Of a stretch of DNA of 64,000 bases, positions 5,820 through 27,697 are shown one piece after another. The notes under the pieces are model-generated. The model ran no database searches, was not told where the DNA came from, and was given only the letters and a program-made list of their open reading frames with translations. Made by a program: the position numbers and the translations under genes. The stretch lies in assembly GCA_003345545.1 (NCBI GenBank), contig PRDH01000081.1:56483-120482 (forward strand), given 5' to 3'. The DNA is from Candidatus Thorarchaeota archaeon (GTDB lineage: Archaea > Asgardarchaeota > Thorarchaeia > Thorarchaeales > Thorarchaeaceae). Positions within the stretch are counted from its first letter, which is position 1; each line of letters opens with the position of its first letter.

Positions 5820-5926
5820 TGGTGGACCGGGCGAGATTTGAACTCGCGGCCTTCTGAAGTGTCGGCCTGTGGCTAACACCAGCAAGCTTGCGAATCAGAC
5901 GATCTACCGGTCTGATCTACCGGCCC
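5820..5926 (-). tRNA. tRNA-Ala(CGC) with 30-nt intron (5859-5888) at position 37/38; CCA encoded
   Basis: Reverse complement folds as GGGCCGG acceptor (G3:U70), TCTGA/TCAGA anticodon stem with TTCGCA, TTCAAAT T-loop, ACCA end; 77 nt after intron removal. Confidence 0.93.
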
Positions 5927-10065: not shown

Positions 10066-10227
10066 AACTCTTCGCGGAAGAGTTTGCTTTCGCATCATAC
10101 GGTGTCAGGCCGGATGCTGTCGGCGAATGCCAAGCTATGATGGCTCGTGATTTCCAGATGCGATGACAAGATGCGGACGTGAGATAGACTGGCACACATG
10201 TGACAGAATACCCTCAGGTCTAAGAAA

Positions 10228-10300
10228 GGCTCAACAGTGTGCAGGTATAACATGGGTAAGCTATCTCTGCTAACCCCGTTAAGCCTGTACTTCATCAAGC
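10228..10300 (+). other. 5' strand of the 16S pre-rRNA processing stem (leader)
   Basis: GGCTCAACAGTG pairs with 12087-12098; GGGTAAG with CTTGCTC; TCTCTGC with GTGGAGA; CCCCGTT with GACGGGG; CCTGTACTTC with GAGGTACAGG (12007-12016); CAAGC with GCTTG. Confidence 0.8.
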
Positions 10301-11237
10301 GAATTAAGTTCTGTGTGTAAAAGTGTTGTACAAAGTGACTGAGTACTACTCCAGTCATTCCTTGCTAAGATGTACAATATTAGGACCAACTCTAGTTGAT
10401 CCTGCTAGAGGACACTGCTATCGGCTTGGGGATAAGACATGCAAGTGGAACGGGCTCGCATCCGAGTCCGTCGCGAACGGCTCAGTAGTGTCGCTAACCT
10501 ACCCTGTGGAGGTGGACAACGCCGGGAAACTGGCGTCAATCCATCATAGGAGCATCGTTCTGGAAATGATGTTGCTCTCAAAAGGATGTTCCAGGCATGT
10601 GGGACACTCCGCCGCAGGACGGGACGGCACCGGATCATACTTGTAAGTGGGGTAACTGCCCACTTAGGTTATGACCCGAACGGGCGATGTAAGTCGTGGC
10701 CCGGAGAAGGGCACTGAGACAAGGGCCCTAGCCCCACGGGGCGCAGCAGTTACGAGACCTCACCAATGCGCGAAAGCGCGAGTGGGCTAAGCCGAGTGAT
10801 GGGGGATAACTCCATCTGTGGCGGATCCGCAGGGTGGACCGCTAGAAAGGAGAGGGCAAGGCTGGTGCCAGCCGCCGCGGTAAAACCAGCTCTTCGAGTG
10901 GTGTCCACAATTATTGAGCTTAAAGCGTTCGTAGCCTGCTTGGTAGGTCCCTGCTTAAATCCGGTCGCTCAACGATTGGTCTGGTAGGGATACCACCTTG
11001 CTTGGGGACGGGAGACGGTGACGGTATTCCGTAGGTAAGGGTGAAATCTAATGATCTACGGAGGACCACCAGTGGCGAAGGCGGTCGTCGAGAACGTGCC
11101 CGACGGTGAGGAACGAAACCTAGGGGAGCAAATCGGATTAGATACCCGAGTAGTCCTAGGTGTAAACGATGTCCGTTAAGTGTTGCATTGGCCACGAGCC
11201 ACTGCAGTGCTGTAGCTAAAGCGATAAACGGACCGCT

Positions 11238-11301
<64 letters not shown>

Positions 11302-11746
11302 GCTTGCGGTTCAATTGGACTCAACGCCGGAAAACTTACCCGCCCAGACAGCCGAATGAGAGCCAGACTGATGATCTTGCTCGACGAGCTGAGAGCTGGT
11401 GCATGGCCATCGTAAATTCGTGCCGTGAGGTATCAGCTTAAGTGCTGCAACGAATGAGATCCTCGCCACCTAGTTGCCAGCCGGGAGTTTAGGCTCTGAC
11501 GGGGCACACTAGGGGGACCGCCAGCGAAAAGCTGGAGGAAGGTGGGGGCCACGGTAGGTCAGTATGCCGCGATATGGGCGGGGCCACACGCGTGCTACAA
11601 TGGCTGGGACAATACGTAACAACGCCGAAAGGTGAAGTCAATCGCGAAACCCAGTCGTAGTCGGGATCGCGGGTTGGAACTCACCCGCGTGAACCTGGAA
11701 TCCCTAGTATCCGCGTGTCACTATCGCGCGGAGAATACGTCCCTGC

Positions 11747-11776
11747 AGGGGACGTGAATCTCACGTACCCGGGGAA
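11747..11776 (+). other. 30-nt BHB intron in 16S (after ~E. coli 1386)
   Basis: Helix CCCT/GGGG, bulges GC^A and AA^T, internal hairpin; removal gives CCCTGCTTCTTGCACACACC. Confidence 0.85.
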
Positions 11777-11879
11777 TTCTTGCACACACCGCCCGTCGCT
11801 CCACGCGAGCTGTTCTTGGGTGAGGCGTCATCCACTGGGTGATTACGAATCTTGGGACGGCAAGTGGGGAGAAGTCGTA

Positions 11880-11909
11880 AAGTTGTTAGACTTCCTAGCG
11901 ACTCGATTA
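11880..11909 (+). other. 30-nt BHB intron in 16S (after ~E. coli 1499)
   Basis: Helix GTCG/CGAT, bulges TA^A and TA^A, 9-bp hairpin; removal restores AAGTCGTAACAAGG. Confidence 0.9.
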
Positions 11910-12003
11910 ACAAGGTATCCGTAGCGGAAGCTGCGGATGGATCACCTCCTAAGTTTTCACCATCTTCAAGATGGTGAAGATTAGCTTGCCTGTCTTCGGA
12001 CAG

Positions 12004-12115
12004 GTAGAGGTACAGGCCTTCGACGGGGAACGCGGTGCAATCGTAAGGTTGCCCCGACGCCAAAGTGGAGAACTTGCTCTTGCTGTCGCTGTTGAGCCAC
12101 CCTTTTCCTTTTTCA
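12004..12115 (+). repeat. 16S 3' trailer repeat copy 1 (resident; processing-stem 3' strand plus T-rich terminator)
   Basis: GTAGAGGTACAGGCCTTCGACGGGGAACGCGGTGCAATCGTAAGGTTGCCCCGACGCCAAAGTGGAGAACTTGCTCTTGCTGTCGCTGTTGAGCCACCCTTTTCCTTTTTCA. Confidence 0.92.
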
Positions 12116-16927: not shown

Positions 16928-17344
16928 TTAGATATTGGTCGGGTCAAGTCTTGTTAGACCTTCTATTCTATCATAGATACGATCTGTTGAAGCAATAGTA
17001 TGATCCGGATTGTCATTACTGAGTGAAACTGCTGCATAAATCGCATCAAAGATGGAACCCAATCTATAATTCTCCAAGAGATATAGCGCTGCTAGTTGAT
17101 GATCAATTGTAGAAGGGACAACTGAGATATTTGGGAACGTAACAACGTGACTTATGATATCACGAACTGAGGACACACCAGTGAGGTTTCTCAAGACATA
17201 GTAAAGTTCTATGGAGAAGATACTTGGAACAAGGACACTCCCGAACTTACCTTCTTCAATACTTGAGAAAAGTCGAGTCGCATGCGTTTTTAGATTGTCA
17301 TTCTTCTTATAGAACGCCAAGATCATATCGTTCTCGATTAGCAT
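16928..17344 (-). CDS. PIN-domain (VapC-like) toxin
   Basis: MLIENDMILA, IELYYV, IFDAIYAA, IASTDRIYD. Confidence 0.85.
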   Translation of the reverse strand: MLIENDMILAFYKKNDNLKTHATRLFSSIEEGKFGSVLVPSIFSIELYYVLRNLTGVSSVRDIISHVVTFPNISVVPSTIDHQLAALYLLENYRLGSIFDAIYAAVSLSNDNPDHTIASTDRIYDRIEGLTRLDPTNI

Positions 17345-17574
17345 TCCGTTTCTTTCCGCCTCCATCGTTTGGATACATCCTTCGCAATCTCTGCATCTGC
17401 TTTGGCAAGGAGGTCCGCAATTGGTCCCTCAATATCCAATTCTGGTTTATCAGAGGGGATAGGAAAGAGGATATGATAAGATCCAATGGTAAGGAGAAGA
17501 AAAGTATCTCCTTCGAGTCCTGCCTTTCTTGGGATTCTGATGCGTCTTTGATCATCCATTCGAACTCTTACCAT
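17338..17574 (-). CDS. AbrB/MazE-like antitoxin
   Basis: VRMDDQRRIRIPRK; overlaps PIN gene; GAGGTG Shine-Dalgarno (SD). Confidence 0.8.
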   Translation of the reverse strand: MVRVRMDDQRRIRIPRKAGLEGDTFLLLTIGSYHILFPIPSDKPELDIEGPIADLLAKADAEIAKDVSKRWRRKETEC

Positions 17575-17620
17575 CAAGATGAACACCTCGTATGATTGTA
17601 AGACAAATATGATTTAAAGA

Positions 17621-17652: not shown

Positions 17653-17720
17653 ATGTATATATTGACCTATTTCTATCAGGCTACAATATTCGGCGACATC
17701 TCATTCGATTGATTCAGGGA

Positions 17721-17786
17721 GTATCCGACGCGGAAGCTGCGGATGGAAGAAGTTGAGATTTCCTCATCTTCCATCACTCACCTCCT
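17721..17786 (+). pseudogene. Orphan 16S rRNA 3'-end fragment (h45 plus anti-SD) with its own 30-nt BHB intron (17748-17777)
   Basis: GTATCCGACGCGGAAGCTGCGGATGGA[intron]TCACCTCCT versus resident GTATCCGTAGCGGAAGCTGCGGATGGATCACCTCCT. Confidence 0.9.
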
Positions 17787-17951
17787 ATTTTTTCTACTTC
17801 ATAGAGGTAGAAGCAGCTTGGCTCGCAGTCCTTCGGGGCTGTGGGAGAAGTACGGGCCTTCGACAGCGGGGAACGCGGTGCAATCGTCAGGTTGCCCCGA
17901 CGCCAAAGTGGGGAACTTGCTCTTGCTGCGGCTGTTGAGCCACCCTTTTCG
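17787..17951 (+). repeat. 16S trailer repeat copy 6 (complete trailer with both upstream hairpins)
   Basis: Hairpin, AGCTTG, UUCG hairpin, then repeat; same layout as 11951-12115. Confidence 0.9.
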
Positions 17952-18050
17952 TTGTCTATCGTCAATTTCGGATGAGTGTAAGTCAGGTTTATCTTCTCTC
18001 TCGTTTGCTTTCAGGTTTAAATATGTGACTTGACCAAGTGGGAATAATCA

Positions 18051-18818
18051 GTGAAAGTCAAATGTTTTGATTGTGATGAAGTGATTGAAGCGGACAGCCT
18101 TGAAATGCTAGCAGATGTTTTTGTGACACATGGTATAAGGATCCATTCTTGGGAGTATCCCGAAGAGGCGATAAGAAATTACGCCTGCAATTACGCAGAA
18201 GCAGTAGAGCGACTCACAGGTGATACAGCAAGAAAAGAGGAAATTGGCGAAATCACGATACATCCAGTCACAAAGGACTCCATAGATGATTGGTTACATT
18301 TTTTCGATCATGATGGTTTCGCCGATAATCCTGGGTGGGCATCCTGCTACTGCCTCCAACCACATTTACCTACGACAGATGAGAACCTAGATCGTCCATG
18401 GCGTGAATCACGATCAATCATGGTCAAACGCCTCTTAAAGGGAGAAACATTTGGGTACTTAGCGTATGTTGATAACAAACCAGTGGGATGGGTAAACGCT
18501 TCTTTGTGCAGTGAGTATAAGCTTCTTCAACAAAGCGATCCGAATGGTCCTGAGTCAGCATCAATAATTGGTATCTCGTGTTTCGTGGTTGCTCCGCCCT
18601 ATAGAAGACATGGAATTGCGTCAGCCTTACTCGATCGTGTTATTGCGGACGCTGCCTCCCGTGGTGCATTGTGGATTGAGGGCTACCCTCGCAATAAGCC
18701 CGAGAGTAAAGATGACGCGCACTTTCGAGGACCTAGTAGTATGTACACTAATCGTGGATTCCAACCAGTTGTTGTTCGAGGACGTGATACTGTAATGCGT
18801 TTGCAGGTACACTATTGA
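18051..18818 (+). CDS. GNAT acetyltransferase with N-terminal CxxC domain (cassette cargo)
   Basis: CFVVAPPYRRHGIASALL; IEGYP. Confidence 0.85.
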   Translation: MKVKCFDCDEVIEADSLEMLADVFVTHGIRIHSWEYPEEAIRNYACNYAEAVERLTGDTARKEEIGEITIHPVTKDSIDDWLHFFDHDGFADNPGWASCYCLQPHLPTTDENLDRPWRESRSIMVKRLLKGETFGYLAYVDNKPVGWVNASLCSEYKLLQQSDPNGPESASIIGISCFVVAPPYRRHGIASALLDRVIADAASRGALWIEGYPRNKPESKDDAHFRGPSSMYTNRGFQPVVVRGRDTVMRLQVHY

Positions 18819-19328: not shown

Positions 19329-19348
19329 CTCACCTCAGATAGAGTTTC

Positions 19349-19903: not shown

Positions 19904-20653
19904 ATGGCTGGCAATAGTCTTGGACTCAGTCCTCTTCAGAAGAGCATGATTATAGGCTATGCCTTCTTTGTTGTTGCGTACAGTCTAAGCATCATGACCG
20001 CACTCTTGATTGGAGGTATCGGAGGACTTGTGCCTAGGGGCTCTCTCTGGTTCCGGGTGACCTACGACCTGCTCAGGCAGAGCACCAATCTTGCAATGCC
20101 GGTGTTCATCTCCATTCTCCCCCTGTTAGTCATGCTCAACCTGAACTATATATGGTTCAAACACCTATCCACGTCCGAGCCTCTCTCTGCAAGGAAAGTG
20201 TCTATTCAGACTGTCCTTGGCGTCTTCGTTGCTCTTCCTCTCTTGATACTTGCCGTGAGCATGATGGTCGTTTCTGCAGAGTCGATTATCGGGTGGTATG
20301 AACAATGGCCTGTCTATGGTGTTATTTTCTTCGTCGTATCTCTGCTGTACATGCTTGTAATCTCCGTCATCTCAGCAAGTGAGAAGAAGCGGTTCCTAGT
20401 TCAAAGTCTTACGAGTGCTCGCCTGTGGGTGCCATATGTCCTCGTCTCCGTCTTGCTGGCTTTCCCAGTTGCTGGAGTAATTCTCCCCTTCTTCAAGGGG
20501 TATTGGATGTCAATTCCTCTTGGCCGAGCGTTAGACACTTTTTTGAGAGCATTCTGGGTATCCTTGGTCCTGCCGGTTCTTCCGTACATATTTGCTCGCC
20601 TAAGCGTGAAACCTGATTCTCCTAGCGGATTCTCAGATGAAGGCTCGAAGTAG
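19904..20653 (+). CDS. Hypothetical multi-pass membrane protein (cassette cargo)
   Basis: About 6 TM segments; stop codon is the TAG of the repeat's GAAGTAG 5' motif. Confidence 0.75.
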   Translation: MAGNSLGLSPLQKSMIIGYAFFVVAYSLSIMTALLIGGIGGLVPRGSLWFRVTYDLLRQSTNLAMPVFISILPLLVMLNLNYIWFKHLSTSEPLSARKVSIQTVLGVFVALPLLILAVSMMVVSAESIIGWYEQWPVYGVIFFVVSLLYMLVISVISASEKKRFLVQSLTSARLWVPYVLVSVLLAFPVAGVILPFFKGYWMSIPLGRALDTFLRAFWVSLVLPVLPYIFARLSVKPDSPSGFSDEGSK

Positions 20654-26770: not shown

Positions 26771-27697
26771 TCACTTGTTTCTGATAATGGTGAATAACAA
26801 AACCAGCCCAACCAATAACCCGACTCCAGAGGACACGCTAAAGAAGAGGTTGAATCCGTGTGTTTCTGCTTGAGCGAATGTAACAGTGCTGAGTAAGGCC
26901 ACCAATCCAGTGATGAGAACTAACATACCTCTCTCAAGCCTGGAGAAATATCTCTGATCTAATGAGAATATCCGTATCCATAGTATTGCACTCACTATCG
27001 CCAAGGGGGGGATAGTGACTAAAACAAACGAGATTGGAAGTAATAAGAGGCCACTGAGGACTGCACGTATCGTGAATAATCGTGCTCCGTACCTCTCAAA
27101 CTCCTCTTGAGCAACACGTCCATAGTCCTTTCTAATCTTGGATTGATATCCTCTCCAGATCGAGAACTTCCATGCATCTACTCTTTGGTGAACGCCACCG
27201 GTCTTTGTCTGGTCCAGATCTGGAGCATATTCGCTCTTGAGTATTGGAAGTATGTAGACCATGATGATTAGCGACCATACACCAAATATGGCTATGGCAT
27301 ACTCGATGAACGACAATGGCCTTGAGAGGAAGAGGGCACTCCATATTGTATAGATCGCATATGCTGCCAAGGCCAGCGCTGGAATTAGGACTAACAGAGT
27401 CGCCATTCTGAGCCTTTTCCTCTTTCCTCTAATCCAGGATGACAACACCCTGAAGACAAATGTGCAAAAGGATGCATAGGTCAGTGCTATTCCAAGACCA
27501 CCCAAGAAGCGCATGACTGTACCTGTGACTACCGCAAGTGTCAAAAACTCCTCCCCGAGTATCAGTGAAATAATGTCCCACCCTCTGAAGAACAGTACTA
27601 TTACATACAGAGCGAGTCCTGCTACTACTCCAATGATGTACGAATTCCTCTGATTATCCGCGATTCTTTTACTGAACTCTGCGATTGTCTTCTGCAT
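26771..27697 (-). CDS. Hypothetical multi-pass membrane protein
   Basis: 308 aa, about 7-8 TM segments. Confidence 0.75.
   Translation of the reverse strand: MQKTIAEFSKRIADNQRNSYIIGVVAGLALYVIVLFFRGWDIISLILGEEFLTLAVVTGTVMRFLGGLGIALTYASFCTFVFRVLSSWIRGKRKRLRMATLLVLIPALALAAYAIYTIWSALFLSRPLSFIEYAIAIFGVWSLIIMVYILPILKSEYAPDLDQTKTGGVHQRVDAWKFSIWRGYQSKIRKDYGRVAQEEFERYGARLFTIRAVLSGLLLLPISFVLVTIPPLAIVSAILWIRIFSLDQRYFSRLERGMLVLITGLVALLSTVTFAQAETHGFNLFFSVSSGVGLLVGLVLLFTIIRNK

Follow-up and report, generated by a model that had tools for sequence, protein, structure and literature searches.

An ectopic copy of the 16S rRNA gene 3' end, with a mini-intron-like insert and trailer, in a cassette array of Thorarchaeota

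The window, a stretch of 64,000 nucleotides of contig C81 from the metagenome-assembled genome of a Thorarchaeota (Asgard) archaeon (G000; 2.69 Mb, 93% complete), contains a single 16S rRNA gene with the following features in and around it.

5823-5926, minus strand: tRNA-Ala(CGC) gene with a 30-nt intron after position 37, found by Rfam and missed by ARAGORN
10224-10293, plus strand: leader strand of the pre-16S processing stem (inverted repeats I22 and I25)
10389-11950, plus strand: resident 16S rRNA gene (Rfam RF01959, 1246 bits)
11747-11776 and 11880-11909, plus strand: resident 16S mini-introns, 30 nt each, at the conserved sites about 1386 and 1500
11951-12115, plus strand: resident trailer, with hairpin A (11956-11978), a cUUCGg hairpin B, and the first array repeat (12008-12112)

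The resident gene ends in GTATCCGTAGCGGAAGCTGCGGATGGA followed directly by TCACCTCCT (11915-11950), without an insert at E. coli position 1531; such ends are referred to below as type I. The leader segments GGCTCAACAG (10228-10237) and GCCTGTAC (10283-10293) pair with CTGTTGAGCC and GTACAGGC, which are found in the trailer and in the array repeats.

Behind the 16S gene, about a dozen co-oriented repeats of ~105 nt, spaced 0.3 to 1.9 kb apart, reach to about 25.7 kb; a short form of ~70 nt is also present. These repeats represent the 3' strand of the pre-16S processing stem, i.e., the strand that pairs with the 16S leader. The blocks between them carry small cargo genes on either strand, among them genes for PIN toxins, GNAT acetyltransferases, a YCF48-like protein, and an LVIVD-repeat protein. 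A reading of the repeat as the coding N-terminus of minus-strand genes was abandoned, since both strands carry cargo and the 16S leader pairs with the repeat. No Rfam families other than SSU rRNA were matched in the array. At its far end lies a gene for a 308-aa multi-pass membrane protein without a Pfam match (26771-27697, minus strand), 86% conserved at the same place in the genome G052. Outside the array, a stray short-form repeat is located on another contig (G000:C12:6830-6905), 1.3 kb from a tRNA-Sec gene, and two repeats in the inverted orientation (G000:C81:53922 and 54464) lie 2 to 2.5 kb upstream of the window start.

One of the array repeats, located 5.8 kb downstream of the resident end, is preceded by a second copy of the 16S 3' end, here termed the orphan.

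16928-17586, minus strand: VapBC-type toxin-antitoxin cargo, with a PIN toxin at 16928-17365 (Pfam PIN, E 1e-6) and a small upstream ORF at 17338-17586
17721-17747, plus strand: orphan h45 copy GTATCCGACGCGGAAGCTGCGGATGGA, 27 nt, with two mismatches in the 5' strand (sequence read)
17748-17777, plus strand: mini-intron-like insert of 30 nt, consisting of A, a 23-nt hairpin, CATC, and AC
17778-17786, plus strand: orphan anti-Shine-Dalgarno tail TCACCTCCT
17792-17812, plus strand: orphan hairpin A, TTCTACTTC-ATA-GAGGTAGAA, of the type II trailer
17822-17845, plus strand: orphan hairpin B, cUUCGg, of the type II trailer
17851-17955, plus strand: array repeat of ~105 nt that closes the orphan, a copy of the processing stem 3' strand
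17868-17898, plus strand: inner hairpin of this array repeat
17932-17945, plus strand: invariant core CTGTTGAGCCACCC of this array repeat

A sequence-only reading of this stretch had reported that 36 nt of the 16S end recur here with two mismatches and are followed by a full trailer with two hairpins, and both observations were borne out. The copy spans 17721-17786, its mismatches (TA to AC) both fall in the 5' strand of h45 and both break pairs, and the two trailer hairpins, one of them with the cUUCGg loop, occupy 17792-17845, where they are joined by GCAGCTTGG, and precede the array repeat that runs to 17955. The 18-mer GCGGAAGCTGCGGATGGA of h45 occurs at two places in the window, the resident and orphan ends, compared to 0.03 expected by chance, and no third copy was found in the 2.69-Mb genome. 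Upstream of 17721, 16S homology was not significant against shuffled controls; a GCGAC..TCGATT arrangement resembling the 1500 intron was rejected because it scored no better than such controls. The orphan was not called as rRNA by cmscan even at E<=1, the resident gene being the sole full-length match to RF01959. The five repeats between the resident end and the orphan carry no 16S piece, as is the case for most repeats of the array.

Two further properties of the orphan sequence can be noted. On the minus strand, positions 17786-17740 read AGGAGGTGAGTGATG, a perfect Shine-Dalgarno sequence with a start codon, and a frame of 33 codons comes next. Complementarity to GGATGG and to the anti-Shine-Dalgarno tail probably accounts for this arrangement as a by-product. 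For hairpin A of either trailer type, two pairings are open to the 3' strand (GAGGTAG or GATGGTGA), which can bind its own 5' strand or else the anti-Shine-Dalgarno tail (read at 17778-17812 and 11942-11978 of the window); in the precursor, this alternative pairing could act as a masking switch.

When the 87 genomes of the order were searched with the query 17700-17960 and the fetched loci were read, about 30 orphan ends emerged in cassette arrays of at least 17 Thorarchaeota genomes from 9 genera, often several per array. The orphan, taken in the sequence-only reading for a displaced terminus, thus belongs to a regular class of cassette-end repeats and is no isolated accident. Most copies carry inserts of 30 to 33 nt; the insert-free orphans are only four, three in G026:C9 and one in G036, and the three from G026 match the resident end of that same genome, which fits local duplication as well as import. 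Two of these three (in G026:C9:10061-13492) start exactly at AACAAGG, the 1500 mini-intron site, and have TCTCT before it.

This recurrence bears on the possibility that the orphan is an assembly artefact or that the contig is chimeric. The window comes from a metagenome-assembled genome, JGI metagenome contigs did not contain the exact junction 39-mer, and contigs C30 and C17 of G052 terminate in one shared stretch of 57 nt within a type II copy, so that assemblies evidently break at the repeats and arrays become split over contigs. However, the same architecture is seen in many independent assemblies, and the flank-to-copy junction behind the VapBC cargo is the same, at 92%, in the genome G053. 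An artefact, which had been named as one of two outcomes that would undo the original claim, is therefore extremely improbable.

The type II module is defined by the insert after GGATGGA, then TCACCTCC, then TTCTAYYTC..GAGGTAGAA GCAGCTTG. Searched as an exact pattern over one genome per species (185,579 species), it was found in 28 stretches, all of them in Thorarchaeota assemblies. The proposal that related 16S genes should be searched for this insert and trailer proved productive: in 13 species (G052, G037, G054, G042, G060, G071, G024, G074, G075, G076, G020, G016, and G018), the type II module, with a TTCTAC..GTAGAA trailer and a 30- to 33-nt insert at exactly the same site, is the end of the resident 16S gene itself. 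The other outcome that would have undone the original claim, a lack of full-length 16S genes with this intron site or trailer type, thus did not occur. Eighteen other species, G000 included, have insert-free type I resident ends with other hairpins, and two metagenome contigs combine an insert-free end with a type-II-like trailer. Type II resident ends are found in four species from the same genus as the window.

The nearest relative of the window's orphan, judged by its left module, is the resident end of one of these congeners, G037 (93% identity). Elsewhere, resident ends are nearest to orphans of their own genome (G052, 96%; G024, 94%) or to orphans of other species (G020, 99%; G071, 95%). 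Identity among copies within genomes (0.839) exceeds that between genomes (0.785); the observed value was reached in 0 of 2000 label permutations. Orphans and resident ends thus appear, from these identities, to form one pool. The description of the orphan as a displaced earlier or foreign 16S terminus is accordingly supported by the resident ends of the relatives, which fit "earlier" and "foreign" alike.

Conservation along the orphans is uneven. The 5' strand of h45 decays, and the sequence from GCGGAAGC onward is at least 90% conserved. Left edges are ragged: some copies begin at AACAAGG and most at GTATCC or later, which is read here as an edge effect of repeated conversion rather than the mark of a fixed recombinase site. 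The same data could be read as selection on a working RNA element, i.e., an alternative terminal exon, an anti-Shine-Dalgarno decoy or regulator, or a processing site in a read-through pre-rRNA: the h45 3' strand, insert, tail, and hairpin A are conserved to at least 90% and show compensatory changes, and all copies are co-oriented with the 16S gene. However, repeated conversion from selected resident ends explains both this conservation and its fall-off toward the edge, and the 16S-derived part is missing from most array repeats, which makes a function of this kind very unlikely.

The 30-nt insert had been described as an intron with a bulge-helix-bulge (BHB) motif. Its CATC does pair with the exon GATG, leaving bulges GA/A and AC/T (slashes mark the junctions), so that each junction follows base 2 of a 3-base bulge beside a 4-bp helix, and removal in this conformer restores GGATGGA/TCACC exactly. 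Such junction geometry is that of canonical pre-tRNA introns. However, the lowest-energy structure is an uninterrupted stem of 9 bp, with the BHB conformer lying 3 to 13 kcal/mol above it (median, 6.4). There is no outer exon-exon helix of the strict hBHBh' form, since GCTGCG and CACCTCC do not pair, and the insert would be at best a relaxed BHB form. Across 42 copies the insert and hairpin A covary, in a way that does not separate the plain hairpin from the BHB register. Thus, the insert and the formable conformer were corroborated, and splicing is a prediction.

These folding results would also suit an insert that is not spliced at all, being either an expansion hairpin that is retained or an insertion that does no more than mark array copies, as would its presence in nearly all orphans versus about 40% of resident ends. 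Against this, in 13 species the insert separates h45 from the anti-Shine-Dalgarno tail in the sole 16S gene, and it is precisely absent from otherwise similar contexts. Two inserts of the same build (11747-11776 and 11880-11909) interrupt the universally conserved 1386 and 1500 regions of the resident gene, and the 30-nt intron of tRNA-Ala(CGC), which must be spliced for a working tRNA, shares this build as well. Hairpin introns of under 50 nt are known in 16S genes (PMC4496867). An unspliced insert is accordingly considered distinctly unlikely.

The comparative evidence favours an intron. The 16S body lengths in the order are 1463, 1493, 1523, and 1583 nt, i.e., they include 0, 1, 2, or 4 units of 30; the sites used are universally conserved; and insert-free ends occur before type-II-like trailers. 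The insert is precisely present or absent at one site (13 resident genes with it, 18 without), even between the sister species G023 and G024. Type II 16S transcripts can be expected to be spliced by the tRNA splicing endonuclease, which would join GGAUGGA directly to UCACCUCC. The 16S gene of G074 contains an additional insertion of ~830 nt.

Where the cassettes are cut and joined can be read from G052, which shares several cassettes with the window at 93 to 95% identity in a different order. At one rearranged junction, the G052 repeat matches the window repeat at 19346 up to the GCTG of the core and the repeat at 20644 from CCACCCTC on, so the crossover took place within TTGAGCCACCCT. This interval includes a conserved GTTRRRY-like core, and the exchanged bond can be placed only to that interval. 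A crossover at the far end of the repeat means that the repeat body belongs to the cargo upstream. By this logic, the orphan would be the downstream boundary repeat of the VapBC cassette. The same succession of VapBC cargo and type II copy is seen in G053 (cargo 92 to 97% identical) and in G024. Against this assignment, identity between the window and G053 already falls some 70 nt ahead of the copy. Also, GNAT cassettes like the one at 18051-18818 have a type II copy in front in four genomes, behind four different upstream cargoes, which blurs the ownership of the copy; with all type II copies 78 to 93% alike, sliding identity cannot decide between upstream and downstream cargo.

The sister pair G023 and G024 provides a view of exchange at the resident end. 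In a tree of 21 16S gene bodies, on which end type requires 2 to 4 changes, the type I species G023 and the type II species G024 form a fully supported sister pair. Their last 300 bases of 16S are identical up to GGATGG. There follows a differing patch of ~100 nt, which comprises the insert and trailer hairpins A and B; near-identity resumes from GGTACnGGCGGG to the core CTGTTGAGCACCC and gives way to complete divergence after it, as expected of a cassette junction at the core. The left edge of the patch lies inside the gene, so exchange reaches into the 16S. The suggestion that crossovers can fall within the rRNA gene thus holds for this patch, whereas the cassette crossovers map to the core and not to the 16S piece. 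The companion claim, that the 16S end and its insert are exchanged, gains direct backing from this pair and from the 13 species in which the module is the resident end. Since related species use the type II module as their working 16S end, recombination would have swapped the tail of an essential gene together with its intron.

Enzymes that could drive such exchange were looked for in G000. No integrase was found in the cassettes, their flanks, or the genome, and searches for tyrosine recombinases (PF00589), serine recombinases (PF00239), and Y1 transposases (PF01797) gave no match in this 93%-complete assembly, in which not even a XerA-type tyrosine recombinase was detected. Among the 87 genomes of the order, PF00589 is present in 29, never on an array contig, and is absent from the array-rich G052, G026, G041, and G035. 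With no recombinase in G000 and a repeat that does not fold like an attC site, homology-driven exchange is favoured here, although the lack of a recombinase also counts against the reading of the array given below, and from the pattern as a whole we infer both the direction of transfer and the repair mechanism.

The reading preferred here, with a probability of roughly 0.65, is that the orphan is an ectopic type II module without a ribosomal role that forms the boundary repeat of the VapBC cassette, the cassette being joined at the core and the 16S part copied by conversion. From left to right, the module would comprise h45, the 30-nt mini-intron after 1531, the anti-Shine-Dalgarno tail, both hairpins of the trailer, and the processing-stem 3' strand. 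Cassettes would be cut and joined inside the invariant core TTGAGCCACCC, with the repeat body traveling with the upstream cargo, and the 16S-derived left part of the orphan would have been copied from the type II 16S end of an ancestor or of a species of the same genus. A likely route is homology-driven repair by one-ended gene conversion, with the shared ~105-nt repeat as the priming site and the tract extending back into the gene; this would account for the ragged left edges. Copies and resident ends would keep converting one another, and the insert and trailer type would flip between sister species. The further step, that array copies serve as donor templates through which the single, essential 16S gene gains or loses the 1531 mini-intron and has its trailer exchanged, is put forward tentatively, at somewhat less than even odds.

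The same observations could have arisen in place. The orphan might be the former resident end, pushed downstream when circles bearing cargo and a type I end entered by Campbell-type integration, which assumes a single crossover in or before h45. That four same-genus species keep type II resident ends, one of them 93% identical to the orphan, would suit such a history, as would the patch breakpoints at h45 and the G026 orphans that equal their own resident type. Five intervening repeats without a 16S piece, mapped cassette junctions at the core rather than at h45, and the presence of such a copy with the same VapBC cargo in two other genomes argue against it, and this in-place origin is viewed as unlikely.

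The 16S rRNA gene is regarded as the least exchangeable of genes and serves as the standard of phylogeny. In these archaea, the last ~130 bases of 16S plus trailer, with an insert beside the anti-Shine-Dalgarno tail, behave as an exchangeable unit, of which a gene-cassette array stores spare copies. This provides a testable case of recombination into an essential rRNA gene and of mini-intron spread without a homing enzyme, as well as of a cassette system that lacks an integrase and has rRNA processing signals as its anchor, in the archaea closest to eukaryotes. Should the array copies indeed be donor templates, introns that lack endonucleases would have a route to move, and the 16S 3' end, with its processing signals and the sequence around the anti-Shine-Dalgarno tail, would be exchanged horizontally together with cassettes in Asgard archaea. 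There is also a practical side: the inserts at the 1386, 1500, and 1531 regions sit in or beside widely used "universal" primer sequences, and assemblies break at the repeats.

Several known systems resemble parts of this arrangement. Integrative elements leave duplicated 3' ends of tRNA genes (attL/attR) and, similarly, a direct, slightly diverged copy of a structural-RNA 3' end marks the far side of the inserted DNA here. In contrast to such elements, the present array has no integrase, its many small cassettes are stacked, the left edge of the copy is ragged, and the target is the 16S end with its processing stem.

Integrase-less attC clusters (CALINs) have been reported to be enriched in Asgard archaea (Ghaly et al. 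2022, PMC9668308), in a study that does not mention rRNA; the CALINs reported there may include arrays of the present kind. Both have small cassettes with toxin-antitoxin pairs and GNAT acetyltransferases, co-oriented repeats, and a GTTRRRY-like core (GTTGAGC here) at the repeat end; the crossover interval mapped here includes that core. The present array differs in lacking IntI or any tyrosine recombinase and in carrying cargo in both orientations. Unlike attC sites, the repeat does not fold into one imperfect hairpin when single-stranded (z-scores between +0.5 and +0.9, whichever strand is folded); it is a copy of the 16S trailer and, at the orphan, also of the gene end.

Hairpin-forming BHB introns of <50 nt have been described in the 16S genes of Thermoproteales and Aigarchaeota (Jay & Inskeep 2015, PMC4496867). 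The insert resembles them in being a short hairpin at a conserved site, without a homing endonuclease, whose removal restores the canonical sequence and whose distribution among relatives is patchy. It differs in its site, as the position after 1531 does not appear in their list of loci (374 to 1391), in its Asgard host, and in having copies outside the gene as well, in a cassette array.

Finally, the archaeal pre-16S processing stem with its BHB site has been reviewed previously (PMC8339473), and the right part of the orphan, ~105 nt in length, is like its 3' strand in pairing with the 16S leader. In the array, however, this strand is repeated a dozen times downstream, away from any leader.
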